Source of the DNA: Spirochaetales bacterium
GTDB lineage: Bacteria > Spirochaetota > Spirochaetia > CADAEX01
Assembly: GCA_024233785.1 (NCBI GenBank)
Contig: JACKPD010000011.1
Location: 5,002 to 69,001 of the forward strand
Reading direction: 5' to 3'
Length of the DNA stretch: 64,000 nucleotides
Positions 653 to 41,666 of this stretch are shown piece after piece (position 1 is the first letter of the stretch; every line of letters begins with the position of its first letter). Below the pieces are notes generated by a model. It saw only the letters and a list, made by a program, of their open reading frames with translations. It was not told the origin of the DNA and made no database searches. A program made the position numbers and the translations under genes.

Positions 653-1592
653 AAGGGCGAGAATTCCCTATACAGTCCTCGGGGACGGAGGAAGCGGAGG
701 GAAAAGACATTTTGAACGCCTTTCGCTTCTTGTCCTAAACAGGGGAAAATCCATATTTAAAACTGATTTTTTAAAGGAAATTGAAAGCCTTGGTTTTGCT
801 GAGGTAATATCCATAGAAAATCCCGGTGTAAACTATGATGTTGAAAGCATCTCAAGGAAATTCCCTTTTGTTAAATTCCTTCTGCTTCAGGAAAGCTGCA
901 GCCCCGGAGAGCAGATAAATCTCGGGCTTGAAGAGGCAAAAAGCGAATATGTATATACAGTATGGAACAATATGAAGCTTTCTCCATCATCTGTATCTGT
1001 AAGGCTTGTTGAAAACCTTCAGAATGAAGAATCAATCTGTACTGTCCCGGTACTTAGAACTTCGGGAAACGAAATAGTCCCTTCGATTGTGATACCGGCA
1101 TTTAAAAAAAGGAATCTCAAGATTATTTATACTGTTCCCAAAAAAAACGGCGCGATCACCCTGTTCCCGTTTGATTATTGCGGTATTTACAACAGGGAGA
1201 AATTCCTTTACAGCGGCGGTTATGATTACTCAATCCTGAACCAGTACTGGCAGAAGATGGATTTCGGTTTCAGGGTGAACATGTGGGGCGGAAGAATTAT
1301 ATGCAATACAAGCCTTCAGTCGGCCTATACTTCTGATTTTATTACAGATGATTCCTCTGTTGACAGATACTACAGGAAGTTTTACCTGAAAAATCTTGCG
1401 GTAAGGTTTAACGGTGATTCAGGTTATCTTCCGGGTTCGAAATTTATACAGTATCTTTTAAGGTCGGGTGAAAGTTTTTTTACAGCAAGAAATAATTTTA
1501 ATGAAGCAAAAAAATGGGTTGAGCTGAATAAATACCGTTTTAATTTTGACTGCAGAGGGTTAACAGAATTATGGTCAGATCCGGAAATGTAG
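627..1592 (+). CDS. hypothetical protein, degenerate GT-A (GT2-like) fold
   Basis: Long ORF. I prefer the internal ATG at 627 (MNTIPTT) over 546 because 546 lies deep inside the upstream gene. The layout resembles GT2 (LSLLVLNRG...SPGEQINLGLEEAKSEYVYTVWNNM), but no DxD motif is visible. Confidence 0.45.
   Translation: MNTIPTTSKRARIPYTVLGDGGSGGKRHFERLSLLVLNRGKSIFKTDFLKEIESLGFAEVISIENPGVNYDVESISRKFPFVKFLLLQESCSPGEQINLGLEEAKSEYVYTVWNNMKLSPSSVSVRLVENLQNEESICTVPVLRTSGNEIVPSIVIPAFKKRNLKIIYTVPKKNGAITLFPFDYCGIYNREKFLYSGGYDYSILNQYWQKMDFGFRVNMWGGRIICNTSLQSAYTSDFITDDSSVDRYYRKFYLKNLAVRFNGDSGYLPGSKFIQYLLRSGESFFTARNNFNEAKKWVELNKYRFNFDCRGLTELWSDPEM
682..691 (+). repeat. GGGACGGAGG word, copy 1
   Basis: Exact 10-mer in sense orientation in the 627-1592 gene. 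It is read as GDGG, and a CGGAGG echo follows 9 nt later. Confidence 0.9.
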
Positions 1593-2290
1593 CTGTATTT
1601 CTACAGGCCCGTATCGGTTCAACACGGCTCCCGTCCAAAGCTCTTTTTGATCTTAATGGAATTACGGCGATCGGCAGGGCCATGATCAGGCTGAAAAGAA
1701 TAAAAGCAGATAATTATGTTGTTCTCACGGACCGCGACAGTTATGCAATACTTGAAAAGGAAACACAGAAGTACGGATTTGAGATTATGGAAGGTCCGGC
1801 TGATGATGTTCTAAAAAGATTTGCTCTTGCGATTATAAAATATTCTCCTGTTACATTTGTAAGGGCAACAGGAGATAATCCCCTGGTATTTTACCGCCAG
1901 GCGCAGTTTATTCTTTCAGAGCATATTGAAAAAAATGCGGATCACAGCTGGTTCACCGGAATGCCTCTGGGCGCCGGGGTTGAGATAGTAAAATCAGAGA
2001 AATTGCTGGAAGCGGAAAAAAACGCCTCTGATCCGTACGAAAGAGAACATGTAACTCCTTATCTTTACCGCAGACCGTCATTGTATAATCTTAATCATCC
2101 TGAAGCTGATATCAGCTCAACATATCCCGAAGGCAGAATAACCATGGATACCATGAATGATTATCTTTATTTAAAGAGAATATTTGAAATAGATAATATT
2201 ATCGGGACTGACTGTCTGACAGAAAGTACTGAACGGTTAATTGACTGGCTTAAAAAGAATCCCCATCCTGACAGTAATAAAAAATCATGA
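1571..2290 (+). CDS. cytidylyltransferase-family protein (SpsF/PseF/NeuA-like, CTP_transf_3)
   Basis: The N-terminus VAVFLQARIGSTRLPSKAL is the typical P-loop-like motif of acylneuraminate/sugar cytidylyltransferases. The gene overlaps both neighbours. Confidence 0.7.
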   Translation: MVRSGNVAVFLQARIGSTRLPSKALFDLNGITAIGRAMIRLKRIKADNYVVLTDRDSYAILEKETQKYGFEIMEGPADDVLKRFALAIIKYSPVTFVRATGDNPLVFYRQAQFILSEHIEKNADHSWFTGMPLGAGVEIVKSEKLLEAEKNASDPYEREHVTPYLYRRPSLYNLNHPEADISSTYPEGRITMDTMNDYLYLKRIFEIDNIIGTDCLTESTERLIDWLKKNPHPDSNKKS

Positions 2291-4098
2291 AAAAAATACT
2301 TTTTATCCCTTCATGTGAAAAAGGCAACGGAAGCGGCCATTTGCGACGGTGCTGCCTCTGGGCAGAGTCGCCGCTTTATGATGGTTACATCTATATCCCT
2401 GAACAAAGACTCGGAGAGTATCTGTCTGAAGGTAATTCTGAATTCGCAGCCGCGCATTTATCTGACAATGAAAAGATCGTAACAGCTTTAGAGGGACGCT
2501 GGGATATGTCGGTTCTTGATATGAGGAGAACTCCGGTACAGCTGATAGAAAAATGCAGAAGTATATCAATAATACTCACTGGTGTAGATGAGGGAGGTAT
2601 CTGGAGGAAAAACTTTGACTACCTTATTGATACCCTGCCGAATCCATATAATACGGGCGTAAGGAGCAATATTACTTCAACCGGTCTTCTTGGTATTCCG
2701 GATAAAAGAGAAGCCCTGCTTTCTTCCGGCAGAATAGATAAATATTCATCTGTATTAGTGTCCTTCGGCGGTGAAGACCCTGCCGGTATTACAGAGCGGT
2801 TTTTAAGCGATGCTGTCAGGTTCAGTCTTTTTGAAAATCTTGAAGTAACAGTTGTAACAGGCCCTTTTTTTAAAAATAAAGGTAAAATAAAGGATAAATA
2901 CGGTTGTTTCAACATTGTTGAATCTCCGAAAGGGATTGAAGATTTAATTGACAAAGCTGATCTTGTTTTTACCTCATTCGGACTTACAGCTTATGAAGCA
3001 CTTTATTCCGGAAAGCATGTAATTTTGATCAATCCGTCAGGATATCACAGGAAACTGTCCCTTATTGCGGGAATATGTGAAGCAGGTATAATTAACGGGG
3101 AAATCAGGAAGATTAAACAGATCCTTGATAACCCTCATCTTTATGATGAAAGTGCAATAAAATTACTTGATCCCCCCTCTGATATCATGGAGCTTTTTAA
3201 AAGTACCGCAGAGACAGAAAAAACAGCATGTCCGATTTGCGGGAATAAAGGGAAAATATTTAAAAGGTTTTTGAAAAAAAACTACATCAAGTGCGGCAGG
3301 TGCGGTATTTATTATCTTCAGAAGACAGGACCTTTTGCAAATGATTCAAAAATATACAATAAATCCTATTTTTTTGAGGAATATAAAAAGCAGTACGGTA
3401 AAACATATCTGGAGGATTTTAATAATATTTCAGTTATTTGTCTCAGCCGTCATAAAATAATAGAAAAAATCAAAAAATCAGGAAAAATACTTGATGTAGG
3501 GTGCGCATACGGCCCTTTTCTTGATGTCATGAATAAAAAAGGGTATGACTGTACAGGAATTGACATATCCGAAGATGCTGCAGGCTATGTCAGAAAGAAG
3601 CTTGGCATAAACGCATTCACTTTTGATTTTGCTTCATCCTCTTCTTTGACTGACCCTGACGCATCAGCAATTAAAAAAGATGTTCTCTCTCCTGAAGGAA
3701 ATTACGATATAATAACTATGTGGTATGTCATCGAGCATTTTAAAAATACAGATAAAATAATTCGAAAAGTACACTCGATGCTTAATGAAGGCGGTATATT
3801 TGCATTTTCCACTCCGAATTATTCCGGAATTAGCGGCAGGAAAAATATTTCAGGATTTCTTGAATCAAGTCCTGATGATCACTTCACAATATGGAATATT
3901 AAAACCGCCCGCCGGCTGATGCGGCAATACGGATTCAGAATAATCAGGGTGAGATCAACAGGACATCATCCTGAAAGGTTCCCCCGGTTTCTTGAATTAA
4001 CGACAGGAAGGAAGATTCTGGGAATAATCAGCAGAATATTCCGGCTGGGTGATACATTTGAAATTTATGCAGTAAAGGCAGGGCCGGTGAATGATTGA
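2287..4098 (+). CDS. fusion protein: PseG-like (GT28-fold) domain + Cys4 ribbon + class I SAM-dependent methyltransferase
   Basis: The N-terminus KILFIPSCEKGNGSGHLRRC resembles the G-x-GH-x-x-R start of PseG/SpsG. The middle has CPICGN...CGRCG. The C-terminus has ILDVGCAYGPF (SAM motif I) and a GGIFAFSTPN block. Confidence 0.6.
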   Translation: MKKILFIPSCEKGNGSGHLRRCCLWAESPLYDGYIYIPEQRLGEYLSEGNSEFAAAHLSDNEKIVTALEGRWDMSVLDMRRTPVQLIEKCRSISIILTGVDEGGIWRKNFDYLIDTLPNPYNTGVRSNITSTGLLGIPDKREALLSSGRIDKYSSVLVSFGGEDPAGITERFLSDAVRFSLFENLEVTVVTGPFFKNKGKIKDKYGCFNIVESPKGIEDLIDKADLVFTSFGLTAYEALYSGKHVILINPSGYHRKLSLIAGICEAGIINGEIRKIKQILDNPHLYDESAIKLLDPPSDIMELFKSTAETEKTACPICGNKGKIFKRFLKKNYIKCGRCGIYYLQKTGPFANDSKIYNKSYFFEEYKKQYGKTYLEDFNNISVICLSRHKIIEKIKKSGKILDVGCAYGPFLDVMNKKGYDCTGIDISEDAAGYVRKKLGINAFTFDFASSSSLTDPDASAIKKDVLSPEGNYDIITMWYVIEHFKNTDKIIRKVHSMLNEGGIFAFSTPNYSGISGRKNISGFLESSPDDHFTIWNIKTARRLMRQYGFRIIRVRSTGHHPERFPRFLELTTGRKILGIISRIFRLGDTFEIYAVKAGPVND

Positions 4099-5740: not shown

Positions 5741-6819
5741 TAACAGGACGGAAATCAGCAGTTTTAATTGTTTTTCTTCTTTTTATACTCTGTTTAAATG
5801 CCAATGCAGCATCTGATGATATCTCTCTGGCGGATTTCATTAAACAAAATAATTTTTCGTTCAGATGGTCCCCGATACTTGATACCGGAGAACTTAAGTA
5901 TGGAGATGACATTTTCAGTTTCAAGCCGGGAGAAGATTTCATTGTATATAACTATAAGGAAAAAATAACAGGCTCCGGGATATACAGGGACGGAGGAATT
6001 ATCATAATTGACGGTAAAACCGCTGAAACAATTCTTTCAAAGAGCGGTTTTACCTCTTCCCCAAGACCGGTAGAGAAGGAATCGGCTGATGTTAAACCTT
6101 CGGGGCACAGGATTGCTGCAATAATTATTGATCCCGGGCATGGGGGAAGGGATTCCGGAGCAATAGGCAGACATGAAATTGATGGGAATAATTATACTGT
6201 TTATGAAAAAGATGTTGTTCTTGATATTGCGCTTGAATTAAACAGGAGGCTGACCTCTGCCTACAGGGATAAAAAAATAATTCTTACCAGAAACAATGAT
6301 TCATATCCATCGCTAGATGACAGGGTAGAAAAAGCAAATAATGTCAAACTTGGAAAAAACGAGGCAATTGTATTTGTTTCTATACATGCAAATGCATCTT
6401 TCAATAAAAACGCGAAAGGGTTCGAGGTCTGGTATCTTCCGCCCGAATACAGACGGGACCTGCTTGATGAGAACAATGCTGACAAGAAAACCAAAGATAT
6501 CCTTCCTATCCTCAACACAATGCTTGAAGAGGAATTTACAATAGAAAGTATTTTATTGGCGCAAAACATACTTGATGGTCTTGATAAATCAATTGGCAGT
6601 AAGGATTTAAACAGAGGTTTGAAGGAAGAAACCTGGTTTGTTGTAAAAAATGCCAAAATGCCTTCTGTTCTGATTGAAGTGGGATTTGTATCAAATAAGG
6701 AAGAATCTGTAAATCTTTCGGATAAAAATTACTTGAAGAAAATAACCGAAGGTATTTATAATGGGATAAAAAGATTCATCGACAATCTTGAAATGATTAA
6801 TACCGGCGGAGAAAATTGA
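5734..6819 (+). CDS. N-acetylmuramoyl-L-alanine amidase (Amidase_3 / AmiC type)
   Basis: IIIDPGHGGRDSGAIG, VSIHANA and PSVLIEVGFVSNKEE are the canonical Amidase_3 zinc-ligand blocks. An N-terminal signal peptide is present. Confidence 0.85.
   Translation: MVITGRKSAVLIVFLLFILCLNANAASDDISLADFIKQNNFSFRWSPILDTGELKYGDDIFSFKPGEDFIVYNYKEKITGSGIYRDGGIIIIDGKTAETILSKSGFTSSPRPVEKESADVKPSGHRIAAIIIDPGHGGRDSGAIGRHEIDGNNYTVYEKDVVLDIALELNRRLTSAYRDKKIILTRNNDSYPSLDDRVEKANNVKLGKNEAIVFVSIHANASFNKNAKGFEVWYLPPEYRRDLLDENNADKKTKDILPILNTMLEEEFTIESILLAQNILDGLDKSIGSKDLNRGLKEETWFVVKNAKMPSVLIEVGFVSNKEESVNLSDKNYLKKITEGIYNGIKRFIDNLEMINTGGEN
5987..5996 (+). repeat. GGGACGGAGG word, copy 2
   Basis: Exact 10-mer in sense orientation in the amidase gene, read as RDGG. 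Confidence 0.9.
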
Positions 6820-6820
6820 A

Positions 6821-7285
6821 TTGAGTAAAAAATTAAGGATGATATCTGCTATTTCCATTTTGGCAGTATTTATAATATCGTTTGCAATATATATTTCTGT
6901 AAATTTACATAAAACAGAAAGAATTTTTTTCTTTCCTGAACATAATAACAGCAAAACAGTAGGTGAAAGCCGCAGAATTCCCAGATTTATAAACAGGGAG
7001 AAAAATGTAGATATATTTACACGGGAATTGCTGCTGGGTCCTCTTAATATGAAGCTGGATTCTTTATTTTCTTCTGGTACAAAACTGGAAAAAATGTTAT
7101 ATAGAAACAAAATTATTTACCTTGATCTTGATATTAAGGCGCTTTTTCCTGATAAAAAGGCAATACACGGTTTCGATACCGGAATTAGACTGTTAAAAAA
7201 AAATATAAAGTTTAATTTCCCCTATGTAAAAAAGGTGGTTGTTACAATATCGGGTGAAGAAACTTTAATTGAGGACGGGGAATAA
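6821..7285 (+). CDS. GerMN-like domain protein, membrane anchored
   Basis: An N-terminal TM helix is followed by a GerMN-like pattern (ELLLGP...IIYLDLD...VKKVVVTISGEE). The start is TTG at 6821, or the ATG at 6839. Confidence 0.5.
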   Translation: MSKKLRMISAISILAVFIISFAIYISVNLHKTERIFFFPEHNNSKTVGESRRIPRFINREKNVDIFTRELLLGPLNMKLDSLFSSGTKLEKMLYRNKIIYLDLDIKALFPDKKAIHGFDTGIRLLKKNIKFNFPYVKKVVVTISGEETLIEDGE

Positions 7286-10974: not shown

Positions 10975-12306
10975 ATGAATACCGATATATGGGAACTAAA
11001 AGAAGAATATAATAAAGCAGAGGCAGTAGATAATATTGATTATAAAATGGTTTCTTTCTCACTTGGCGGTAAAGATTACGGAATCGATATAATGAAGGTT
11101 AAAGAAATTCAGAAAGTCAATAAATTTACATTTGTTCCCAACTCAGAACCGTATGTAAGAGGAGTATTTAACCTTCGAGGCGATATTATATCAATTATAG
11201 ATCTTAGAATTATGTTCAGCGTTTCTTATGATGAAAATTATAATGACCTTGAAGATGTTATAGTATTAACAGTTGACGATAAAAAAATTGGAGTAATTGT
11301 AGACTCCATAAATAAAGTAATCGGGATACAGTCATCTACAATACAGACTCCTCATCCTATTTTCAGCAATATCAATATCAAATATATAAACGGTATAGTC
11401 GAGAAAGATTCCAAAATATATATTATCCTTGACATTGAAAGAATTTTCGGTCAGGAAAATGATATAGAACAGGAACCGGTTTCTGACGAAAAAATAATTG
11501 ATTCCGGTTCTATTCCTGAAAAAACTGTTTACCGGACCGCGGATGTAAAAACGGAAACTGATGTTAACAAGGATTTTATAAAGGAAACTCTTAAAACCTT
11601 TATAAACTTCCATGTTACTGATATAAATGAGGCCTGGTTTTTCAGAAGGTATGATGAATGGCTGAAAAAAAGAAGGGAATCAGAAGAAAATGTACAATTG
11701 TCAGGTGTAGAAGATGCTGAAAAATTTCTGCAGACTTTCTATTCAGGAAATACAGGCAGATTTTTTGACCAGGCGTCAGCACAGGCATTAATGAAAATAA
11801 TTCCCGAAAATATTAAAGGTAATTATTATATCTGGAATATCGGCTGCGGAAACGGGTATGAAACATATTCAGTTGCAGCGGTCGCAAGAAAACAGAATCC
11901 TGATGCTGCCATTAAAATATGGGCTAATGATAAAGATCTTTTAAGTATTTCAAATGCGCCTAATATAACTGTAGACAGGAATTCTGTACCCGGATATCTG
12001 AATGATTTTATCTCTGAAGGAACAAAAGGAGGAGTAATATCACAAAAGTTAAGAGATATTATTTATTTCGAATATCATGATGTCAAAAATCATAATCCTT
12101 ATCCTGATGTAGACATGATTATTTGCAGGGACGTTCTGTCTTTTTTCGATTATAATGAACAATTCAGAATTTTAAGTGAATTGTTTGAAAAATTAAAGAA
12201 TAACGGTATACTTATCACCGGCGATAATGAAAATATTGTCCTCGAAGGATTAGACAAATATGAGGAACAGGGTATTGTTTTTTACCGTAAAAATGCAGGT
12301 ATTTAA
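10975..12306 (+). CDS. cheW: CheW domain fused to a CheR-like SAM-methyltransferase-fold domain (spirochaete-type coupling protein)
   Basis: The N-terminal CheW domain reads FSLGGKDYGIDIMKVKEI...VRGVFNLRGDIISIIDL. The C-terminal half has IWNIGCGNGYETYS and ICRDVLSFF blocks, as in CheR. Confidence 0.85.
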   Translation: MNTDIWELKEEYNKAEAVDNIDYKMVSFSLGGKDYGIDIMKVKEIQKVNKFTFVPNSEPYVRGVFNLRGDIISIIDLRIMFSVSYDENYNDLEDVIVLTVDDKKIGVIVDSINKVIGIQSSTIQTPHPIFSNINIKYINGIVEKDSKIYIILDIERIFGQENDIEQEPVSDEKIIDSGSIPEKTVYRTADVKTETDVNKDFIKETLKTFINFHVTDINEAWFFRRYDEWLKKRRESEENVQLSGVEDAEKFLQTFYSGNTGRFFDQASAQALMKIIPENIKGNYYIWNIGCGNGYETYSVAAVARKQNPDAAIKIWANDKDLLSISNAPNITVDRNSVPGYLNDFISEGTKGGVISQKLRDIIYFEYHDVKNHNPYPDVDMIICRDVLSFFDYNEQFRILSELFEKLKNNGILITGDNENIVLEGLDKYEEQGIVFYRKNAGI

Positions 12307-17568: not shown

Positions 17569-19764
17569 TCAATATTCATTTATTAAATCAGCAAGCGGAT
17601 AATAATGCTTCAGGATCTCTTCCGCTGAAAATCCTTCAGATGCCATCCCTGCCGCTCCGGTCTGACACATCCCGACTCCGTGCCCCCATCCGGCTCCTGC
17701 AAAAATAAAGAATTGAGGAACCATATCTTCGCCCATTTTAGGCATGACAATAAAAAGATTACTGCGTAATCCGCCGAGACGGTTTCTTATCGAATCATTG
17801 CGTATTATTTCATTCCCTTTGCTCCCTTCAACAAGAACCTCATTTACCCTTCCGCTCATACCCCGGCCCCGGGTTGTAATCCTTAATATTGTACCTATAT
17901 CTTTCCCGATTCTTGCCTCTATTTCCTCTCTTGGAACAATAATTCTCCATCGGTATGAAGATTTATAGTAAAAGGGCGGAATTGAGCTGTATGACGGAGG
18001 TTCTGATAATATCCACCTGGTAAGCTCACTTGGGGACGGAGGATTGGTTTTAAATAAAAGCTGAGGATCGGTTACTCCAATTATCGGAGCATTCATTTTC
18101 CAGACACTTTCCGCTGATTCTGTTCTTCCTGCGGAATTGGCGGAATAGAAAGCATTGAGATAACTGTCATCATGTTTCAGAACCAGTCCTCGGGTTTTTT
18201 CTACAGCAGCAGTAGTTTTAATGTTTTCACCGGACAGCCCGCGGTAGAATGCGGAATGAATAGACCCGGAAAGGTCAAATCCCCGTTTTTCATATTTTCC
18301 CATATTCGCAAGTGTATAAGAGCGGGCAGCGACTGCCTGAGCGGCAAGCGCCTCTTCAGGCCAGGAAGAGGGCATCTCTGATGGAACTACAGAATAAAGG
18401 TATTCCTCAAGAGGCAGCGTGTTAACAATTGTAATTCCATTATTCTGAAAAGGTATAAAGGATATCCTGCCTCTATAGGCCCTGTCTTCCTGTCCTGCAG
18501 ACTGATATCCGCCGCTGTGCGAAATATCAAATATAAGAGTAGTCAGAAATGGATTATCGTAAACAAGCGAGACCGGCTTCGAAACAGTTAGAACAGCTTC
18601 ATTATCTGAAGAGAATATTTCGATATAATTATTATTAAAGACAATTCTGTAAATCTGATTATTATTACCTTTAAGAAGCTGTTCCCCTGACCGGGAAATT
18701 ATAATGAAATCCCCACCTGTTTTGATAAATAATTCACTTAATTTTTCTGCAAGTCCCACTCTTACCTGCGGCATCGAGTCTCTTCCGTCAGTAATTGAAA
18801 TTGCTTTGGGGACGGAGGATGAAATTCTTTTTTTTGCAGTAAATTCCTCCTTTTCTTTAATAATTGCAGGGTTATTTCTTTCAAAAACTGTGAGGATATC
18901 TTCTGTTTCCCTGTCCCACGGTCTTATTGCCATTGATCTTTGAAGCTCTGAATATCCTTCTTTTAACCTGTTTTGAGCAAGAAGGGTTTTAGCTAGATAA
19001 GGCCGTGCCTGTGTGATATTGGAATCCTGTTTTAGAGCTGTACGAAGATGTTTTTCAGACAAATCGAAATCATTATTTTTAAAATACAGTATTCCAAGTG
19101 CAAAATGCGATAGAGGAAAGTAATCCTTTATTCTGATGGAAGATTCAAATGAGTATATCGCTTTATCTGTTTCGCCGCTATTTTGATATGCCCATCCGGT
19201 AAAAAAAAGCATTTCTGATAATTCATCCATTTGTGATTTTTTTTGTTCAATATCATCCCGGGAATTTAAAGTAATATTCCGGATTAAAGATTCAGTTTTA
19301 CCAACATACCCTTTATTATTTCCGGATAAAAAGAGCGGCAGGGCGCTGTCTTCCCAATTTGAAAATGTCCTGTTACTGTCTTTAGAATCGGGTTCATTTT
19401 GATTGTTTGTTTCAGATAAGAAACTTCCTGATTTTAATAATTCTGCTGCTTCTGAAAGGCGTCCTGACTCTTCGAAGAGCCTTGCCAGACTAAGTACAGC
19501 ATCGGAATTTGATGGATCTTCCAGAATAATTCTTTCAAACAGGGAGACAGATTCATTAAAATCACCGTCATAATATGCTGAAACAGCAGTCATTAAATTT
19601 ATGCTGTTCTCTGCAGGATTATCTTTTTTAATTACTTCTACAGCTTCACATCCAGCTATAAACGTGAGAAAAAATAAAAAGAAAGAAAAGATATTATTAA
19701 AAAAATGAAATTGTGTTTTAATTTTAAATGCATTCATTGGTAAATAATTATATATCAAAAACAT
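17569..19764 (-). CDS. TPR-repeat + SpoIID/LytB-domain protein, probable lipoprotein
   Basis: EALAAQAVAARSYTL is the SpoIID signature. The N-terminal half has TPR-like repeats, and a lipobox FIAGC is present. The start may be the internal ATG at 19737. Confidence 0.8.
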   Translation of the reverse strand: MFLIYNYLPMNAFKIKTQFHFFNNIFSFFLFFLTFIAGCEAVEVIKKDNPAENSINLMTAVSAYYDGDFNESVSLFERIILEDPSNSDAVLSLARLFEESGRLSEAAELLKSGSFLSETNNQNEPDSKDSNRTFSNWEDSALPLFLSGNNKGYVGKTESLIRNITLNSRDDIEQKKSQMDELSEMLFFTGWAYQNSGETDKAIYSFESSIRIKDYFPLSHFALGILYFKNNDFDLSEKHLRTALKQDSNITQARPYLAKTLLAQNRLKEGYSELQRSMAIRPWDRETEDILTVFERNNPAIIKEKEEFTAKKRISSSVPKAISITDGRDSMPQVRVGLAEKLSELFIKTGGDFIIISRSGEQLLKGNNNQIYRIVFNNNYIEIFSSDNEAVLTVSKPVSLVYDNPFLTTLIFDISHSGGYQSAGQEDRAYRGRISFIPFQNNGITIVNTLPLEEYLYSVVPSEMPSSWPEEALAAQAVAARSYTLANMGKYEKRGFDLSGSIHSAFYRGLSGENIKTTAAVEKTRGLVLKHDDSYLNAFYSANSAGRTESAESVWKMNAPIIGVTDPQLLFKTNPPSPSELTRWILSEPPSYSSIPPFYYKSSYRWRIIVPREEIEARIGKDIGTILRITTRGRGMSGRVNEVLVEGSKGNEIIRNDSIRNRLGGLRSNLFIVMPKMGEDMVPQFFIFAGAGWGHGVGMCQTGAAGMASEGFSAEEILKHYYPLADLINEY
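18033..18042 (+). repeat. GGGACGGAGG word, copy 3
   Basis: Exact 10-mer, antisense to the SpoIID-like gene (the gene reads PPSP). A partial copy, GACGGAGG, lies at 17993-18000. Confidence 0.9.
18809..18818 (+). repeat. GGGACGGAGG word, copy 4
   Basis: Exact 10-mer, antisense to the SpoIID-like gene in a different frame (the gene reads SSVP). Confidence 0.9.
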
Positions 19765-25170: not shown

Positions 25171-26454
25171 ATGGAACCAATTGTAAAAGAACTTAATACA
25201 ATACTTGATAATTCAACAATTTATACCCTTCTTTCTGACCTTGGAAAAAGAATGTTTTTTCCAAAAGGAATTGTTTCACAGGCCGCAGAAGCCGGTACCA
25301 AGGCAAAAAAATATAATGCAACTGTAGGTATGGCGACAAGCGATAATAAACCTATGTTTCTGCCATCAATAATGAAACACATAAGCGGGCTAGAGCCATC
25401 AGAGATATTCAGCTATTCACCTACAGCCGGGATATTGAAACTCAGGGAAATCTGGAAAGATGAGATGCTTAAAAAAAATCCTTCAATCGGAGATTCTCTT
25501 ATTTCTCTTCCAATTGTAACGTCAGGTCTTACCCATGGAATCTCAATAGCCGCCGACCTTTTTGTAGACAAAGACGACAGTGTGGTAGTTCCTGATATGT
25601 ATTGGGGTAATTATAAACTTATTATTGAGGGACGGAGGCAGGGAAACATTGTCAACTATCCGTTTTTTGATAATGATAAGATAAATATAAAAGGACTTGA
25701 AAATACTATTAAATCAACCGGGAATAAAAAAACAGCTGTTATTCTTAATTTCCCGAATAATCCTACAGGTTATTCTCCTTCTGTAGAAGAATCTGATGAA
25801 ATTATATCAATGTTTAACAGACTTGCAGAAAACGGGCATAAAATTCTTGTGATTTGCGATGATGCGTATTTCGGACTTTTTTTTGAAGAAAATACATCCA
25901 CTGAATCCCTTTTCGGGAAACTCTGCAATCTTCATGAAAATATACTGGCGGTAAAAATTGACGGTGCAACAAAAGAAGAACTAGTCTGGGGATTCAGAAC
26001 AGGTTTTATAACCTATGGGGGAAAAGGGATAACAAAAGAACAGTATGAAGCCCTTCAGCAAAAAACAATGGGTGCAATAAGATCATCTGTTTCAAGCTGC
26101 AGTACCCTCACTCAAAATCTTTTATTAAAAGGTCTTTCGAGCGGAACTTATCATCAGGAAAAGGATTACGCCGGAGAACGGATGAAAGAAAGGTATTTAA
26201 AAGTAAAAGAAATTGTTCAAGATATACCATCAGATGTACCTCTAAAGATCCTTCCTTTTAATTCAGGGTATTTCATGACATTCGAATTGCTGGGAAAAGA
26301 CGCAGAGAAACTTCGAAAATATCTTCTTGAAGAATATTCCACAGGTACAATCTCAATTGCGGGAAAATATCTGCGAATTGCATTTTCGTCTGTAAATATT
26401 GAAAAAATACCGGAACTTTTTAAACTAATTTATAAAGCAGTTAAAGAAATATGA
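25171..26454 (+). CDS. class I/II PLP-dependent aminotransferase
   Basis: [11 protein letters not shown] and DDAYFGLFF blocks are present. I chose the ATG at 25171 because of the AAGGAG RBS; the 25108 start has no RBS. Confidence 0.8.
25629..25638 (+). repeat. GGGACGGAGG word, copy 5
   Basis: Exact 10-mer in sense orientation in the aminotransferase gene, read as GRR. Confidence 0.9.
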
Positions 26455-26479: not shown

Positions 26480-28345
26480 ATGGAAAAAAAAGCTCAAATG
26501 AAAAATAAATTGAGAAGCAGTCTGACTATGGATGACAGGAAGATGGCAGGGGCAAGAAGTCTCTGGATTGCAAATGGAATGAAAAAAAGTCAGATGGGTA
26601 AACCTATTATTGGAATAGCCAACTCTTTTACTCAGATGGTGCCGGGACATGTTCATCTGCATGAAATTGGACAATATGTAAAATCAATTATCGAAGAACA
26701 AGGCTGTTTTGCGGCAGAATTTAATACAATTGCAATTGATGACGGTATAGCCATGGGACATGACGGGATGCTTTATTCTTTGCCATCAAGGGATTTAATT
26801 GCGGACAGTGTTGAGTATATGTGCAATGCGCATAGGGTAGACGCTCTTATCTGTATAAGTAATTGCGATAAAATTACCCCCGGAATGCTTATGGCTGCTA
26901 TGAGACTTAATATCCCTGCGATTTTTGTATCAGGGGGGCCGATGGAGGCAGGAAATTATAAAGGTAAAAAAATAGATCTTATCGATGCAATGGTCCAAAG
27001 TGCTGATAAAAATGTTTCTGACAGCGATGTTGATGAACTGGAAAGGAGCGCCTGCCCAACATGCGGGAGCTGTTCCGGTATGTTTACTGCTAATTCAATG
27101 AATTGTCTTAATGAGGCGCTTGGACTTGCACTTCCAGGAAATGGGACAATTGTTGCAACACATAAAAAGAGAAAAGAGCTGTTCAGAAAGGCCGCCCTGC
27201 AGATTATTGAAAATGCTGACCGCTATTACAGACTGGGGGATGATTCTGTTCTGCCCCGCTCGATCGGTACACGGAATGCTTTCCTGAACTCCATGACACT
27301 TGATATTGCAATGGGAGGTTCAACAAATACAGTACTTCACCTTCTTGCAATAGCGCAGGAAGCAAAAACTGATTTTACAATGAAGGACATTGATGAATTA
27401 TCCAGAAAGGTCCCATGTATATGTAAAGTAGCTCCAAGTTCAAGCTATCATGTTGAAGATGTAAACAGGGCTGGAGGTATTATAAGAATACTTTCTGAAC
27501 TTGCACGCGCCGGTTTAATTGATAAAACAGTAAAGAGGGTTGATTCACCTTCACTGGGAAAAACGATAGATGATTATGATATATCAGGCGATAAGGCTAG
27601 TCCTGAAGCATTTGAAAATGCCAAAGCAGCGCCTGGAGGTGTATTTAATCTTATTTTAGGCTCACAGGACTCAACATTTAAAGATCTTGATACTGATAAT
27701 AAAAATGGGTGCATTAGAAGTGTTGATAATTGTTATTACAGGGACGGAGGACTTGCAGTCCTTTATGGCAATATTGCTGAGAAGGGATCAATAATAAAAA
27801 CTGCTGGTGTAGATAGCTCACTTTTTAAATTCAGAGGTAAAGCTAAAGTGTTTCATTCACAAGAACTTGCTTGTGATGCGATCCTGGGCGGGAAAATTTC
27901 AGCAGGAGATATTGTTGTAATTATTTATGAAGGCCCAAAAGGCGGACCGGGAATGCAGGAAATGCTATATCCGACTTCATACATTAAATCTATACATCTT
28001 GGCAAGGAATGTGCATTAATTACTGACGGAAGATTCTCAGGAGGTACTTCAGGCCTCTCAATTGGCCATGTTTCACCTGAAGCAGCATCAGGAGGTACAA
28101 TTGCCCTCATAAAAGATAACGACATCATAGAAATTGATATACCTGCCAGGTCAATAAATCTTAATATCAGCCTTGATGAGTTGGAAAAAAGAAAAAAAGA
28201 AGAAAAAAATAGAGGAAAAGCTGCATATACACCTGTCCGTGATAGAATTGTATCTGATTCTCTAAAAGCCTATTCATATTTTGTAACATCTGCTGATAAA
28301 GGAGCGGTTAGAGTAGTTCCGGAAAATCTCTATAAACCGGAATAG
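26480..28345 (+). CDS. ilvD: dihydroxy-acid dehydratase
   Basis: [16 protein letters not shown], the Cys-cluster region [27 protein letters not shown] and [12 protein letters not shown] are all canonical IlvD blocks. Confidence 0.95.
27741..27750 (+). repeat. GGGACGGAGG word, copy 6
   Basis: Exact 10-mer in sense orientation in ilvD, read as RDGG within the conserved [10 protein letters not shown] block. Confidence 0.9.
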
Positions 28346-28381: not shown

Positions 28382-28395
28382 GGGACGGAGGTCCC
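28382..28395 (+). repeat. intergenic hairpin GGGAC-GGAG-GTCCC containing one copy of the GGGACGGAGG word
   Basis: A 5-bp perfect stem with a 4-nt loop, 37 nt after the ilvD stop and ~107 nt upstream of the Y1 transposase gene. Confidence 0.8.
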
Positions 28396-28427: not shown

Positions 28428-28466
28428 AAAACATGGATTATTAGTATAACTTTTAATCCATGTTTT
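28428..28466. repeat. perfect 13-bp inverted repeat AAAACATGGATTA / TAATCCATGTTTT (13-nt spacer) upstream of the Y1 transposase
   Basis: Read directly: the arms are 28428-28440 and 28454-28466. It resembles the subterminal hairpins of IS200/IS605-type elements. Confidence 0.75.
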
Positions 28467-28501: not shown

Positions 28502-29017
28502 ATGAGAATCCCAAGAAAAATAAAAGAAAATGTTTTTTATCATGTAGTTGCTAGAGCAAACAGGAAAGAATTTATTTTTAATACCACTGAAATTAAAGAG
28601 ATGTTCATTCTGGTACTTAAAAAAGCTAAAAAAAAGTATTCATTTCAAATAAAAAACTTTTGTATAATGGATAATCATATACATTTATTGATTAAACCTG
28701 GGGAAAATATAAATTTATCTAAAATTATGCAGTGGATATTAAGTGTTTTTGCAATTAGATATAATAAAAAATATGGATATATCGGACATGTTTGGTATGA
28801 TAGATTTAAAAGTAGTATTATCGAAAACTTAAAAGAGTTCATAAATACTTATAAATATATTGCGAATAATCCTGTTGCTGCAAAAATTGTTAAAAAAGTC
28901 CAGAATTATTATTACTGTGGAATAAACTATAAAAAATTTGAATTTATTGATCCACCTGATAAATTAGAAGAGAAACTGTTAAAATATTTTTTTAATGATG
29001 TTTTTCGCGAATTATAA
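28502..29017 (+). CDS. Y1 (HUH) tyrosine transposase, RayT / IS200-like family
   Basis: FYHVVARANRKEFIF, the HUH motif MDNHIHLLI, GHVWYDRFKS and a catalytic-Tyr block YKYIANNP. This pattern matches COG1943-type REP-associated transposases. Confidence 0.8.
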   Translation: MRIPRKIKENVFYHVVARANRKEFIFNTTEIKEMFILVLKKAKKKYSFQIKNFCIMDNHIHLLIKPGENINLSKIMQWILSVFAIRYNKKYGYIGHVWYDRFKSSIIENLKEFINTYKYIANNPVAAKIVKKVQNYYYCGINYKKFEFIDPPDKLEEKLLKYFFNDVFREL

Positions 29018-30233
29018 ATCCTTTTTCTAATTTTTTATCAGTTACAAGATATGATATTTTTCCATGATCTGCTTTTAATACATTATCAAAATTTTCATTA
29101 TAAAGACTGTAATTAGTATCTATCATATAAAGAAGATCCGGTCCGATATATTCTATTTCTTTATTTACAGAAATTTGGTTTTTTACATCAAGAAGATAAC
29201 AATATTTATTGTGGAAAGATGTGTTTTTTATCAATTCACTAATACTTCCAAGAAAATTATATTCTGTCATATAAGATTTATAAGTAGATTCTTCAATTTC
29301 TTCTTTTGAATAGTAAAAACCAGTTGAAAATTCTCTGTGGCTGACTTTATAAATTTCATTTACATATTGATCTAAATTATTATCAATAAAATTATTCCTC
29401 CGTCCCTTAAATTCATTAGCAGCTGATATAGAATCAATCATTTTTCTGTAGGCACGGGTAACTACTGCTGTATAATATATTGATTTCATCCTGCCTTCAA
29501 TTTTAAGGGAATCAATGCCGGCATTTTGAAGATCTTTTATATGATCTATCATGCAAATGTCTTTAGAAGAGAGGATAGATGTGAAATTTTCACCTTCAAT
29601 TAATGGGAAGTACTCTCCCTGTCGTTCGGATTCTTCAAGAACCCTGTATTTCCATCGGCAGGAATGGGCGCAATCGCCTTTATTTGCAGAGCGGTCGGCA
29701 AGATATTTGCTTAAAAAACACCTTCCGGAATAAGCCAGACACATCGCTCCGTGAACAAAAACTTCAATTTCAAGATTATCAACATTTCTTTTTATATCTT
29801 CAATTTCCTTCAGAGATAATTCACGCCCGGGGATTATCCTTGAAAATCCCATATCTCTGTAAAGCTTTGCTGAATTTGTGTTAACACAATTTGCCTGTGT
29901 GCTCAAATGCAGTTCAGTATTGGGAAAATATTTTTTCATAACGGGAATGAGGCCGATATCACTAATTATAAAGGCATCAATAGGATAATTTGATATATAA
30001 TCAATTTCACTTTCAAGCTGTTTTATATCATAATCATGAAAATAGATATTAAGTGCCGCGTATAGTTTTTTATTCTTTTTTATATTCTTAATTTCAAGGT
30101 ATTCGTCTTTTCTGAAATTATCGGCTTTTGCTCTTAGCGAAAAGTTTTTAAGTCCTATATAAGCTGCATCAGCGCCATATTCATATGCATAAAATAATTT
30201 CTCTATACTGCCTGCAGGGGATAATAATTCCAT
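28992..30233 (-). CDS. peptidase U32-family protein
   Basis: MELLSPAGS...GADAAYIG start, a GAMCLAYSGRCFLS Cys block and DSLKIEGRMKS. Its 3' end overlaps the transposase 3' end by 26 nt. Confidence 0.85.
   Translation of the reverse strand: MELLSPAGSIEKLFYAYEYGADAAYIGLKNFSLRAKADNFRKDEYLEIKNIKKNKKLYAALNIYFHDYDIKQLESEIDYISNYPIDAFIISDIGLIPVMKKYFPNTELHLSTQANCVNTNSAKLYRDMGFSRIIPGRELSLKEIEDIKRNVDNLEIEVFVHGAMCLAYSGRCFLSKYLADRSANKGDCAHSCRWKYRVLEESERQGEYFPLIEGENFTSILSSKDICMIDHIKDLQNAGIDSLKIEGRMKSIYYTAVVTRAYRKMIDSISAANEFKGRRNNFIDNNLDQYVNEIYKVSHREFSTGFYYSKEEIEESTYKSYMTEYNFLGSISELIKNTSFHNKYCYLLDVKNQISVNKEIEYIGPDLLYMIDTNYSLYNENFDNVLKADHGKISYLVTDKKLEKGFIIREKHH
29397..29406 (-). repeat. GGGACGGAGG word, copy 8
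   Basis: Exact 10-mer on the minus strand, in sense orientation in the U32 gene, read as GRR. Confidence 0.9.
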
Positions 30234-35125: not shown

Positions 35126-35177
35126 TAAGTAATTTGTTTTAAGATGACAATAGCTTCCTGCTATTGAAAATTAATAG

Positions 35178-35216: not shown

Positions 35217-35255
35217 TGTAAACTTTTCTCAACTGCTGATAAAATATTTTAAATT

Positions 35256-36914
35256 ATGAATCAATCAAAAAGTAAACTGATATTTTTTTTATTGGGACTT
35301 TATTTTTTTCTCAATCTCTTTTTTCTTGATTCATATCCTTTTGTACATTCAGATGAAGCATGGCTGGCTTCCCTTACACGTTCAATAATAACTGAAAAAA
35401 ATCCTGCTGCTACGGAAGAGTTTTTCAGGTCAACAGATAGATTTCCGCATGCGGTAAAGCTGCTGTTTCATATATTTCAGGCACCATTTCTAATGATGGA
35501 TTTTTCAATTAATACAGCTAGGTTGTTTTCGATTATAGCATCAGTCTGCGTCCTCTATTTTCTTAATTTATTAATAAAACAATATATCAGTTCCAGTTTT
35601 ATCAGAATATTTACTCTACTTTTAATACTTACTGATATTCAGTATATCTACATATCCCGTTTTGCCAGACAGGAAATAATTATTTATCTTTTTGCGGTGA
35701 TACAGCTTGTTATTATTTCAAGTATCAATAAAGATAATTTTAGGAGAGTTATTTTATCGTCATCGTTTTTATCCGGTATTTCCATCTTTATACATCCGAA
35801 CAGTTTTATTATTTTTACAGGAGTAATTCCTTATTTTGCTGTTACTCTTTTATATAAAAAGCATAAAATCTCCAAAATATTGAGAAATATCGCAATATTT
35901 ATTTTTATCACTATAATCTTTGGTGCAATAGCTCTATCTGTAAGCTTAATCATGGATAAGGATTTTTTTAATCACTATTATAATTTTGGATCAAGTCACG
36001 GTGTAGGGGATTCTTTATTTATTAAATTGCTTGTTTTTCCAAGATTTTTATACAAGATATATAATCAGGTCCAGGGAACGTATTATCTCCCTGATGTCAG
36101 AGTCCAATTTCATTTATTTGCAGCAGCCCTTATTATTGCTTTTTTTCTGTCTTTTTCAATAAAAAATTCAAAAAACCGTATTTTACCTCTAGTAATATTT
36201 TCTGCCGGTATTGCTGCAGGAATAATTATTATTGGAAAATACAGCCCTCCATCAATCTTTTTCCTCTTTCCAGTGTTATGGATTTTATTGGGGACGGAGG
36301 CAGACATCCTTTTTAATTTGAGAATGGGGAAGGTTGCACTCCCTGTTGAGATGAAAACAGGGACGGAGGATAATTTTAAAAACAAAGAAACAGCTAAAAC
36401 AAAAAATAATATTGTTTTTTTTCCATTCATTCTCTTAATATCTTTTTCATTTTTATTGTTTTACCAGATTACAAAGGCATATACAGAGGTAAATAGCTGG
36501 AAAGATATCAGCTATAATGAGTATTCCATGGAAATAGCAGATTATACAGGTAATAGCGGAAAAGTTCTTGCAAACACAAATCTGGCTTTTTCTTTAGATT
36601 ACGGGAGACTTTGTTCATACAGCGATCTTGATCAGGTAATAGCAAAAAAATTAAAATTCAGTGATTATATTGAATTAAACAAAATTGAATATATCATCTG
36701 GACAGAAGAACTGGATATTATAGCGAAGGAAAGACCAGTATGGAACGATCTTTATGGTAACATTTACAGTTATTATGATGATGCAGTCTCTTTTCTTGAT
36801 AACAAATGTACTCTTGTCAAAGATTTTAGAAATAAAATATATCCGGTCAGAATTGTTGATTACATGAAAAAAAGAGAATACCAGGTGAAAATTTATAAAG
36901 TCCATCCAGGCTGA
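35256..36914 (+). CDS. GT-C-fold membrane glycosyltransferase (GT39 / ArnT / PMT_2-like)
   Basis: At least 10 TM helices, an early periplasmic-loop acidic motif (PFVHSDEAWLASL) and a soluble C-terminal domain. Two copies of the 10-mer lie in a hydrophilic loop. Confidence 0.6.
   Translation: MNQSKSKLIFFLLGLYFFLNLFFLDSYPFVHSDEAWLASLTRSIITEKNPAATEEFFRSTDRFPHAVKLLFHIFQAPFLMMDFSINTARLFSIIASVCVLYFLNLLIKQYISSSFIRIFTLLLILTDIQYIYISRFARQEIIIYLFAVIQLVIISSINKDNFRRVILSSSFLSGISIFIHPNSFIIFTGVIPYFAVTLLYKKHKISKILRNIAIFIFITIIFGAIALSVSLIMDKDFFNHYYNFGSSHGVGDSLFIKLLVFPRFLYKIYNQVQGTYYLPDVRVQFHLFAAALIIAFFLSFSIKNSKNRILPLVIFSAGIAAGIIIIGKYSPPSIFFLFPVLWILLGTEADILFNLRMGKVALPVEMKTGTEDNFKNKETAKTKNNIVFFPFILLISFSFLLFYQITKAYTEVNSWKDISYNEYSMEIADYTGNSGKVLANTNLAFSLDYGRLCSYSDLDQVIAKKLKFSDYIELNKIEYIIWTEELDIIAKERPVWNDLYGNIYSYYDDAVSFLDNKCTLVKDFRNKIYPVRIVDYMKKREYQVKIYKVHPG
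36291..36300 (+). repeat. GGGACGGAGG word, copy 9
   Basis: Exact 10-mer in sense orientation in the GT-C gene, read as GTE. Confidence 0.9.
36360..36369 (+). repeat. GGGACGGAGG word, copy 10
   Basis: Exact 10-mer, 69 nt after copy 9 in the same frame, read as GTE. Confidence 0.9.
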
Positions 36915-36952
36915 ACTGTATCTGTAAAAAGATGGAAGGATTTATTAAGGAA

Positions 36953-37708: not shown

Positions 37709-38475
37709 ATGGACATTCCCCATTTTTTCACTGTTTTGTTTTCAAGAATGGTGAAAAAAACTTCTTCAGTCAGTATTCCTGCAACTACAATAACGAGAAG
37801 TCCTGCAAACAGCCCTGATGAATCCATAAAAACCCTTTTATTATATAAAAACCACCCGATGCCGCCTTTCCCTCCGGCAGCGCCAAAAAGCATTTCTGCA
37901 CTTATCAGTGCGCGCCATGATCTTGCAAATGCTATGCGTGAACCTGCAAGAAAATAGGGAAGAGATGCCGGAAGAGTAATTTTTAAAAATCTGTCCTTTT
38001 TCCCCATTGAATAATTATCTGCGACAAGAGTATATGTTGCCGGAATTGATCTATAGCCTGTATACAGGTTTGTAATCAGAGGCCAGATAACGGAATGAAG
38101 GACAATTATCAGTATTGATTCGATTCCTGTACCTACCCATAAAAGCAGTACTGGTAAAAGTGCTATTCCTGGAAGTGGATGGAAAACTGAAATTACAAAT
38201 TTTAGAAATGATTCAAATATTGCAGAGGAATGCGCTGCCATTACAGCTATCATGGCAAGAATAATACCTGCTGTAATACCAAAAGCAATAACTGCGAAAG
38301 AAAGTAAAAGCTGAATTGCAATACCTTCACTGGAAAATGCATGGAAAAGGGATTTTATTATTGATAATAGTGATGGATAGACTAGCGGTGAAAAATTCCC
38401 GGTAAGCCTTACTGTTTCCCATAGGACAATAAATAAACATACCCAGAGAAATTTTAACAGTATTGGCTTTTTCAT
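37705..38475 (-). CDS. ABC transporter permease (SsuC/TauC-like)
   Basis: Six TM helices and an EAA-like loop (ARSWRALISAEMLFGA). Confidence 0.85.
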   Translation of the reverse strand: MKKPILLKFLWVCLFIVLWETVRLTGNFSPLVYPSLLSIIKSLFHAFSSEGIAIQLLLSFAVIAFGITAGIILAMIAVMAAHSSAIFESFLKFVISVFHPLPGIALLPVLLLWVGTGIESILIIVLHSVIWPLITNLYTGYRSIPATYTLVADNYSMGKKDRFLKITLPASLPYFLAGSRIAFARSWRALISAEMLFGAAGGKGGIGWFLYNKRVFMDSSGLFAGLLVIVVAGILTEEVFFTILENKTVKKWGMSI

Positions 38476-40716: not shown

Positions 40717-40721
40717 TTTAA

Positions 40722-41666
40722 TCAGTCCTTTACTCTTTCTGATAAGTTTACCGGAATTGTCTCTGATACTGATATTTTCCCCTCTCCAACGGTCAGTAAT
40801 TCCGGGGTTTTCCTCTTTTTCAATTTTCGGGAATTCTTTACTAGTTTTATTATACTGAAATAAAGTGAATCAGGGAGGGTATAATGCACAACAAGAAGAA
40901 AAAAAAGGCGTAAAAGCTTAAAGAGAGTGTATCTGCTGTTGGTAATCATGGCAGCATCAGTTTGCAATGTGTAAATACGGGGTTTTAATCTCAGCGCAAT
41001 TGCTGATATATAAATAAAATCTCTTTTTAAAGTGATAATTTTCTGTAGAAGGTCCCTGGAGAGAAGCCTGAAGCTGGTTATTTTGACGCCGAATGGTTTG
41101 CTGAAAAAAAGAAAGAAAAAAAGATCGTGTATTAATGATCCCAATGATCTTGTTATGGAATATATATTGCGGGATGAAGCAAATACTATAAAACATCCTC
41201 CGTCCCCCGGGATTTTACTGTCTGGGCTGGATCCTCCGTCCCCAAACCCGAACATTTGCGGTATATAATTGGGGTCGTGCTGCAAATCATCATCCATTGT
41301 GATTACTTTGCCGCCTTCAGAATATAACAGTCCGTAATAGGTTGCTTCCTGCTGGCCGCTGTTTTTAGAAAGGTGTATACCCTTAATCCTTTTATCCATA
41401 TTGTTAAGTAGTTTAATCTTTTCCCAGGTATTGTCTGTACTGCCGTCGTCTGTTATGAGAATTTCCCATTTATCAGTTATCCTATCAAGAACAGCAATAG
41501 TTTCCATACATGTTTTTTCAATTACAGAACTTCCGTTAAAAGATGGTATTACAACACTGAGTTCTGTGAAATCGCACTTATTATCCTGTTTTCCCGTCTC
41601 ATTGCTGCAGGCTTTATTCGGGTAACTCTCCTTGCCCGCATTGGTTTCTGTATTCATATATTCCAT
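40722..41666 (-). CDS. GT2 polyprenyl-phosphate glycosyltransferase (ArnC/GtrB/DPM1-like)
   Basis: LSVVIPSFNG, ILITDDGSTDNT, ITMDDDLQHDP (DxD/QxxP) and C-terminal TM helices. It contains two copies of the 10-mer. Confidence 0.85.
   Translation of the reverse strand: MEYMNTETNAGKESYPNKACSNETGKQDNKCDFTELSVVIPSFNGSSVIEKTCMETIAVLDRITDKWEILITDDGSTDNTWEKIKLLNNMDKRIKGIHLSKNSGQQEATYYGLLYSEGGKVITMDDDLQHDPNYIPQMFGFGDGGSSPDSKIPGDGGCFIVFASSRNIYSITRSLGSLIHDLFFFLFFSKPFGVKITSFRLLSRDLLQKIITLKRDFIYISAIALRLKPRIYTLQTDAAMITNSRYTLFKLLRLFFLLVVHYTLPDSLYFSIIKLVKNSRKLKKRKTPELLTVGEGKISVSETIPVNLSERVKD
41197..41206 (-). repeat. GGGACGGAGG word, copy 11
   Basis: Exact 10-mer on the minus strand, in sense orientation in the GT2 gene, read as GDGG. 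The extended match is GGGGACGGAGGAT. Confidence 0.9.
41233..41242 (-). repeat. GGGACGGAGG word, copy 12
   Basis: Exact 10-mer, 36 nt from copy 11 in the same frame, read as GDGG. The extended match is GGGGACGGAGGAT. Confidence 0.9.

Follow-up and report, generated by a model that had tools for sequence, protein, structure and literature searches.

We analysed a stretch of 64,000 nucleotides from a Spirochaetales bacterium (assembly GCA_024233785.1, contig JACKPD010000011.1, positions 5,002 to 69,001 of the forward strand), hereafter the window. It has ~37% G+C and a GC skew that is positive throughout, it encodes FlaA and a CheA-CheW/CheR-CheX-CheY cluster, which mark it as spirochaetal, and an Rfam scan of it returned tRNAs only. 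Two features of the window concern us here. One is a 10-mer, GGGACGGAGG, that recurs as exact copies inside its genes. The other is a small gene at 28502..29017 on the + strand, between ilvD and a U32 peptidase gene, which encodes an HUH/Y1 tyrosine-transposase-like protein of 171 aa. The protein resembles the tyrosine transposases associated with repetitive extragenic palindromes (REPs), known as RAYTs, and is of the TIRYT type. TIRYTs are RAYT-like tyrosine-transposase genes that are flanked by terminal inverted repeats instead of REPs, forming TIRtrons (Di Nocera 2013, PMC3733652). In our judgement GGGACGGAGG is probably the core of the terminal inverted repeats of such a TIRtron, represented by the copies at 28382(+) and 29397(-) around the gene, and has spread into coding DNA; we propose the Y1 protein as its reader.

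The window holds 12 exact copies of GGGACGGAGG, nine on the + and three on the - strand, all of them where an earlier note on this DNA had placed them by eye. That note had judged from base composition that such a word should be very rare, and dinucleotide-preserving shuffles agree, with 0.02 copies expected. No other 9-11-mer of the window comes close to its over-representation, 190- to 480-fold above the third-order Markov expectation. The enrichment is limited to the exact word: sequences with zero, one, two and three mismatches occur 12, 0, 20 and 182 times against 0, 0.95, 16.8 and 164 under the null, i.e., the whole window holds no one-mismatch variant. The bases outside the internal GGAGG are as invariant as those within it, and the word differs from its reverse complement. 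The 7-mer ACGGAGG occurs 18 times (14 on the + strand and 4 on the -), 12 of them within the full word, just as counted before, apart from one copy that lies at 42814 and had been listed at 42824. The flanks of the 12 copies are unrelated, except that the base directly 5' is a purine in all of them and the base directly 3' is an A in nine; five run on to end in GGAT, and only six have a fourth leading G. The counts of nine and five had likewise been reported correctly. As a control, at least 80 loci selected by IlvD, mostly from Bacteroidota, contain five copies in 1.37 Mb; these are chance occurrences, each with a pyrimidine directly 5'. A search of the literature for the exact word and its complement gave no bacterial match.

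Eleven of the 12 copies lie inside open reading frames (ORFs), nine in sense orientation in three frames and two antisense in two frames. Five sense copies encode [G/R]DGG: 682..691(+) in ORF 546-1592 (GDGG), 5987..5996(+) in an N-acetylmuramoyl-L-alanine amidase gene (RDGG), 27741..27750(+) in the universally conserved [KR]DGGLAVL motif of ilvD, and 41197..41206(-) and 41233..41242(-), both read as GDGG in one family-2 glycosyltransferase gene. The reading frames given in the earlier note are correct, and these five sites belong to four genes, not to the five that it counted. GRR is encoded at 25629..25638(+) in an aminotransferase gene and at 29397..29406(-) in the U32 peptidase gene, 380 nt past the Y1 gene. 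GTE is encoded at 36291..36300(+) and 36360..36369(+), both in the gene of a 552-aa protein. The antisense copies, 18033..18042(+) and 18809..18818(+), lie opposite the peptides PPSP and SSVP in two frames of a SpoIID/TPR gene. ORF 546-1592 overlaps the end of a SPASM-domain ORF (59-652) by ~100 nt and probably has a later start in reality; the copy at 682 would then lie very near the 5' end of the gene.

The only intergenic copy, 28382..28391(+), is found 37 nt past the ilvD stop and 110 nt before the Y1 gene, a neighbour that had previously been missed. It and the U32 copy are the candidate upstream and downstream terminal repeats. A hairpin had been described at the intergenic copy; it exists, but is weak (5 bp, -4.8 kcal/mol) and is missing at the homologous copy in two related species. 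No fold was found at the homologous and other Y1-flanking copies of GGGACGGAGG, the 5-bp stem being present only at the gene-proximal copy of the window. This weak and non-conserved folding rules out a hairpin or REP structure for the word. A strong hairpin (28428-28466, -11.9 kcal/mol, z = -6.5), followed by TTTT and lacking GGGACGGAGG, stands between the intergenic copy and the Y1 start; it is probably the ilvD terminator, and a similar hairpin is present in a related contig (L271).

Protein sequence and codon usage, or some recurring protein motif, might produce such a word as a mere by-product: [G/R]DGG is encoded by five copies, and in IlvD the word spells a peptide that is universally conserved. 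We shuffled synonymous codons 2000 times with all protein sequences and overall codon usage unchanged, and obtained 0.13 sense and 0.03 antisense copies (0.16 in total, maximum 3) against the 9 and 2 observed, which refutes the by-product explanation. The use of three sense and two antisense frames also argues against it, as does the IlvD site, for which only one taxon in a set of 72 others uses the word; we hold the probability of a by-product to be practically nil. All five [GR]DGG and both GRR peptides of the window are spelled with GGGACGGAGG, including rare codons such as CGG and ACG. The earlier note had proposed that selection acts on the DNA word rather than on protein. The codon-preserving shuffles, the conservation of antisense copies and that of synonymous positions (see below) strongly support a selection or drive of this kind.

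The alignments bear on the origin of the intragenic copies. The IlvD site shows no indel. More distant relatives differ in codons or residues at the two SpoIID sites, and there too no indel is seen. Given the lack of indels at these sites, the intragenic copies arose by base substitution and residue choice, and not by insertion of an element. The in-frame insertion of a 12-nt unit, which we also considered, is ruled out by the same SpoIID and IlvD alignments.

We searched for close relatives via the SpoIID/TPR protein (loci are designated L plus a number). A species with 92% nucleotide identity (L139, from a 3.93-Mb circular contig) keeps six of six copies over the shared 16 kb. L141, L271 and L272 seem to represent one species, ~79% identical in nucleotides to the window, with L272 and L141 coming from one sample. 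Seven of the eight window copies covered are kept in this species, i.e., those in the aminotransferase gene, ilvD, the intergenic spacer and the U32 gene, the two in SpoIID and one of the two in the gene of the 552-aa protein. The eighth differs by a single synonymous base: L271 has this variant at the counterpart of 36291 and keeps the copy at 36360. The same gene of L271 has an extra copy, absent from the window, 36 nt upstream of the 36360 counterpart, so there is some turnover of copies.

At single sites, the antisense copy at 18033 is exact in L139, L141 and L144, and that at 18809 in L139 and L141. The aminotransferase copy is kept in L139, L141 and L271 and lost in the more distant L253, and the ilvD copy is kept in L139 and L271. 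The intergenic copy is kept in L139 and L271 though the surrounding bases and the small hairpin differ, and the U32 copy has the same position and orientation in L139, L271 and L272. In L141 the third positions of conserved residues have an identity of 0.59, and all 10 third positions within its three words survive (P = 0.005). From these alignments, most intragenic copies are maintained in exact form at homologous sites across species, synonymous sites included. L253, a syntenic relative with 57-86% protein identity and a frameshift-ridden assembly, has EGRC in place of EGRR and no intragenic aminotransferase copy; a tandem array of four words with a period of 33-36 nt (6836-6950) occupies its aminotransferase-ilvD spacer.

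The enrichment is not confined to the window, a point on which the earlier note had hung its claim. L273, L274 and L004 carry GGGACGGAGG in other genes. In ORFs away from the Y1 gene, the word reaches 0.15-0.17 copies per kb in L273, L274 and the window. In L004, one of the loci selected by IlvD and a Spirochaetaceae metagenome-assembled genome with 64% G+C, the figure is 0.44 per kb, with five sense copies in leuD and the 5-FTHF cyclo-ligase gene. At ~50% SpoIID identity, L142/L143 and L145 have no copies in 22 kb each, and L144 has one. Among the best 120 Y1 homologues, none comes from the genomes behind L142/L143 and L145, and three come from that of L144. This is weak evidence that word and Y1 gene go together across these relatives.

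The 171-aa protein has Y1_Tnp as its sole Pfam domain (1.8e-18, residues 10-123). It scores 79.0 bits with the NCBIfam model of REP-associated tyrosine transposases (NF047646, cut-off 80) and 36 bits with the IS200 model (cut-off 55). An HUH motif (NHIHLL) and a Tyr motif (YKYIANNP) align with those of the family, and the structure of E. coli TnpA-REP (PDB 4ER8) is matched with E=4e-4. Using TIRYT sequences from the published supplement, BLASTP gave 35% identity and 1e-34 with gbm_2474, 7e-32 with dau_2153 and 4e-26 with rba_2408, against 1e-7 and 1e-10 with the canonical RAYTs of E. coli and P. fluorescens. Judged by these scores, the protein groups with TIRYTs and not with canonical RAYTs or IS200 transposases. 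It aligns with the first ~140 residues of TIRYTs of 220-240 aa. Three species, including those of L139 and L271, have the gene in synteny, with ilvD on one side and the U32 peptidase gene on the other, and its third codon positions diverge ~3 times faster than the first and second.

Two further observations concern this gene. A related 3.79-Mb genome (L273; ena:ERZ21862645 ctg38542c) encodes at least three Y1 paralogues (P0247, P0248 and P0335), unlike the usual single-copy pattern of domesticated RAYTs. In the window, 10 of the 12 copies of GGGACGGAGG are within 12.3 kb of the Y1 gene, and the last 23 kb (41243-64000, with ddl, lon, recO, recJ, PBP1 and M23 peptidase genes) have none; with so few copies and a boundary picked post hoc, this is only a hint that density may drop with distance from the gene.

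The same word flanks Y1 homologues in three related spirochaete species, in Stenotrophomonas, in Luteimonas, and in unrelated metagenome contigs (33-67% G+C). We examined loci chosen by the word and loci chosen by the protein. The former came from a metagenome scan for closely spaced pairs of GGGACGGAGG, which returned at least 120 loci, mostly local arrays and unlike the scatter of the window. Five of them, with G+C contents spanning this whole range (L216, L213, L157, L251 and L245), have a Y1 homologue ~10-530 nt from the array; in L216 inverted arrays, each with two copies of a 22-nt unit starting with GGGACGGAGG, bracket the gene. For the latter, a first homologue search returned mostly Xanthomonadales and a second used the 171-aa protein alone. 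The Y1 gene of Stenotrophomonas (L266-L269) has a + copy at -115 nt, next to which lies a variant with one mismatch, and two - copies on its other side, at +66 and +88 nt; the other 20 kb of these loci hold no further copy. Ten copies surround the Y1 gene of Luteimonas viscosa (L270). Spirochaete homologues with 60-76% identity (L271/L272, L273 and L274) have one to three + copies upstream and one to three - copies downstream.

Wherever both sides of the gene are visible, the flanking copies are inverted; the arrangement of the window, + upstream and - downstream, is found in L139, L271, L273, L274, L216, L266 and L270. The Xanthomonadales proteins with the identical flanking 10-mer are ~50% identical to the S. 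maltophilia TIRYT Smlt4509. More distant, plasmid-borne homologues have flanking repeats with related, G-rich cores. The core is GGGACGGTT in Acetoanaerobium and GGGTCAGG in Legionella; Sporomusa and Skermanella have GGGGTCAG, which fits the published consensus GGGGWSAS. The association between GGGACGGAGG and the Y1 gene family is seen by both routes. L270 also contains, at 11300-11680, an apparent C-terminal remnant of a second TIRYT-like gene, which adjoins the intact gene and is itself bracketed by copies of GGGACGGAGG.

These loci bear on one analogy drawn in the earlier note, that of DNA uptake sequences (DUS in Neisseria, USS in Pasteurellaceae). A competence receptor would prefer the word, and biased uptake followed by recombination would raise its copy number. 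There are real likenesses: a long exact word enriched by orders of magnitude (~200- to 600-fold here), placed in coding DNA in all frames, shaping peptide content to the point that all [GR]DGG and GRR sites are word-encoded, and stable in position between related species. A relative also has a dprA gene, but dprA is near-universal and proves nothing. In Haemophilus and Neisseria, the balance between mutation and drive yields near-cognate variants of the uptake sequence, whereas GGGACGGAGG has no such halo, with neither one- nor two-mismatch variants in excess. No close inverted pair was found within the window, hence none that could serve as a terminator, and the density is ~5 times below that of DUS and USS. 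The two relatives without any copy in 22 kb each are at odds with uptake as well. The word is also tied to a transposase family that spans phyla: in Xanthomonadales it forms the inverted repeats of Y1 genes and is otherwise absent. We regard an uptake sequence as unlikely.

Another suggestion was a HIP1-like iterated word, which would be kept by a methyltransferase together with biased very-short-patch repair. The all-or-none spectrum, with exact copies only, and the conservation of intragenic copies at synonymous sites would suit such a process. Yet GGGACGGAGG is not palindromic, and it is longer than typical restriction-modification sites. No methyltransferase could be linked to the word; Pfam assigns the sole methyltransferase-domain protein encoded in the window (2287-4098) to the small-molecule type. 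Moreover, a bias in patch repair protects one position and not ten, and it leaves the association with Y1 genes unexplained. We find this explanation very unlikely.

The orientation of the copies brings in two more alternatives. Sense copies outnumber antisense copies by 14 to 2 in the window and L004 together, and the 9:3 strand bias of the window, which goes with its positive GC skew, is not separable from this sense-strand preference. Four independent antisense copies (18033 and 18809 in the window, 18329 in L273 and 11750 in L144) are all on the locally G-rich strand, and we found no copy that is both on the template strand of a gene and on the C-rich strand. The pattern would fit exposure of the word on single strands, although numbers are small and the GC skew over 20 kb follows gene orientation. 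An "opportunity" model of the strand bias was discarded as circular, since nearly every word-compatible peptide already carries GGGACGGAGG. So was GC skew as a proxy for replication direction, which is confounded by gene orientation.

The first of these alternatives, raised in the earlier note, is a polar sequence like Chi or the FtsK-orienting polar sequences (KOPS), oriented with replication and read by a RecBCD/AddAB-type helicase-nuclease or by FtsK. The word is G-rich, its bias is co-oriented with the positive GC skew, its density of ~1 per 5 kb resembles that of Chi in E. coli, and the G-rich placement of all four antisense copies agrees with this. Nevertheless, the orientation follows the sense strand, which in short loci is inseparable from replication direction. 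Known Chi and KOPS words have 5-8 nt and are modestly enriched, whereas GGGACGGAGG is an exact 10-11-mer enriched at least 200-fold. It also surrounds the Y1 genes of several phyla, as arrays and as inverted pairs, and a Chi- or KOPS-like role seems to us quite unlikely.

The second is a signal at the RNA level, either an internal Shine-Dalgarno-like GGAGG that pauses ribosomes, as the earlier note had mentioned, or a protein-binding site on mRNA. Both the GGAGG within the word and the strong sense preference speak for it. It fits poorly with two antisense copies that are exact in three species, with intergenic copies and transposase-flanking copies in both orientations, and with the invariance of the bases outside GGAGG. 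We consider it highly improbable. The uptake, Chi/KOPS, HIP1 and RNA explanations each cover some of what is seen; none of them accounts for the same 10-mer bracketing Y1 genes in distant phyla.

We therefore return to the TIRtron. A link between the word and the Y1 enzyme is very likely. That the intragenic copies exist on account of the enzyme is likely but unproven, and we would give it about even chances. By analogy with E. coli TnpA-REP and REP, the enzyme may recognise GGGACGGAGG on single-stranded DNA, and it may nick and reseal it. Intragenic copies would then persist since the interaction is useful to the host, i.e., through selection on each site; alternatively, the interaction would bias repair toward the exact word. 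Strong purifying selection or an efficient correction of near-cognates could produce the exact-only spectrum, which by the same reasoning fits an uptake-type drive less well.

Several points weigh against this interpretation. Stenotrophomonas has no intragenic scatter, so the enzyme alone is insufficient. Binding or cutting of the word by the enzyme is argued by analogy. We know of no Y1 mechanism that makes exact 10-mers by point substitution and could account for their accumulation. The downstream repeat (29397) is within a conserved gene, and in the window alone, the word being frequent (1 per 5 kb), flanking copies would arise by chance with a probability of ~0.01. The core, GGGGACGG, matches seven of the eight positions of GGGGWSAS, with G and not A at position 7. 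The sample of the lineage amounts to ~200 kb. Finally, a C-terminal, helix-turn-helix-like extension is typical for the majority of TIRYTs (subclass 2.1 in Quentin 2018), and the 171-aa protein has none. A bolder view, which we advance tentatively and hold to be rather doubtful, is that a domesticated TIRYT has been co-opted as the reader of several hundred exact sites of 10-11 nt in coding DNA across the chromosome. The sites would be exposed on single strands during replication or transcription, and would be held by selection or enzyme-dependent biased repair, not by transposition.

Compared with published systems, the closest match is the TIRtron. The best published matches of the HUH/Y1 protein, a homologue of RAYTs, are TIRYTs, and its gene lies between inverted repeats that have a G-rich core and are not REPs. 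In TIRtrons, too, the repeats are dispersed in the genome, often as dimers or clusters; GGGGWSAS is common to many TIRYT repeats, and some of the repeats make up families of moderate abundance (PMC3733652). Subclass 2.1 of TnpA-REP-like proteins probably corresponds to TIRYTs, and no REP-like sequences were seen near those genes (Quentin 2018, PMC6006769). What differs is that the dispersed copies are here a bare core of 10-12 nt, nearly all in ORFs, made by substitution and conserved across species. We found no description of such intragenic cores in the literature on families of terminal inverted repeats. The system is probably of the known TIRYT/TIRtron type, and what is new is a recognition core that colonises coding DNA in a spirochaete lineage.

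REP/REPIN-RAYT systems (Nunvar 2010, PMC2817692; Bertels and Rainey 2011, PMC3116915; Messing 2012, PMC3479197) also combine a domesticated Y1 gene with a flanking, inverted and hugely over-represented short sequence; TnpA-REP is reported to bind and cleave REP DNA (Messing 2012). There the gene is single-copy and vertically inherited, and the sequence populations persist for long. A REP is a palindrome of 20-40 nt with a GTAG or CGTC head; it lies outside genes and moves as a unit. GGGACGGAGG, by contrast, is non-palindromic, intragenic in 11 of 12 cases, 10-12 nt long and without insertion footprints. Repeat-family sequences are tolerated inside protein-coding genes in the case of Rickettsia palindromic elements, and intragenic REPs provide a further example (Di Nocera 2013). 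Those are whole elements that, inserted in frame, add residues; here existing codons were changed and none was added.

The role of domesticated transposases of the RAYT type and of their repeats in the cell is a long-standing open question. Earlier surveys sought extragenic palindromes or frequent 16-mers, and a 10-mer hidden in genes would escape them. For example, RAYT flanks were screened with 16-mers in extragenic space (Bertels 2017, PMC5581495), a method that would miss GGGACGGAGG. A cognate site that is short, exact, non-palindromic, placed in ORFs and conserved would imply a function or drive independent of hairpins and of unit transposition. It also offers an experimental handle, with one small protein and one single-stranded site of 10 nt, and predicts that, when complete genomes of the family are compared, word density follows the presence of the Y1 gene. 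More generally, a word may be hyper-abundant in coding DNA without being an uptake sequence. If co-option were true, it would be a new kind of genome-wide signal, with a role comparable to those of Chi, KOPS and uptake sequences.

The word also turned up in other settings. Soil contigs with 63-71% G+C (L213, L173, L220, L198, L176, L165, L192, L182, L215, L147 and L163) contain arrays of 2-12 copies of GGGACGGAGGT with a period of 18-22 nt, two of which often face each other, giving them an iteron- or operator-like look. In L213, L251 and L245 the arrays abut a Y1 gene, in the orientation opposite to that of spirochaetes and Xanthomonadales. A family of hairpins of the type GGGGACGGAGGTACCTGTCCCC occurs in contigs with 38-47% G+C, some from the human gut (L155, L164, L166, L199, L210, L230, L241 and L256). 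One arm contains GGGACGGAGG, and the reverse complement of the other, GGGGACAG, fits GGGGWSAS; no Y1 gene was seen in these short contigs. An unrelated contig with 30% G+C (L191) has two copies, at 1163(-) and 1199(-), at the 5' edge of a U32-peptidase homologue, the gene family that also holds the downstream copy of the window. Pairs of GGGACGGAGG in viral contigs (57 matches) were set aside as irrelevant, all being local tandem repeats in unrelated phage contigs. About 25 of these contigs (L082-L138, 50-58% G+C) have a pair exactly 79 nt apart, apparently a repeat internal to a phage gene; by coincidence this is the span of the pair at 36291 and 36360, and the contigs have no similarity to the window.

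A second enriched 10-mer of the window, TGCTTCAGGA, has seven copies, at 883, 16206(-), 17606, 22001, 27601(-), 33026 and 38715. It frequently extends to ATGCTTCAGGA, has unrelated flanks and is sporadic in relatives. With 0.15 copies expected from dinucleotide shuffles and ~13-fold enrichment over third-order Markov expectation, it is far less extreme than GGGACGGAGG.

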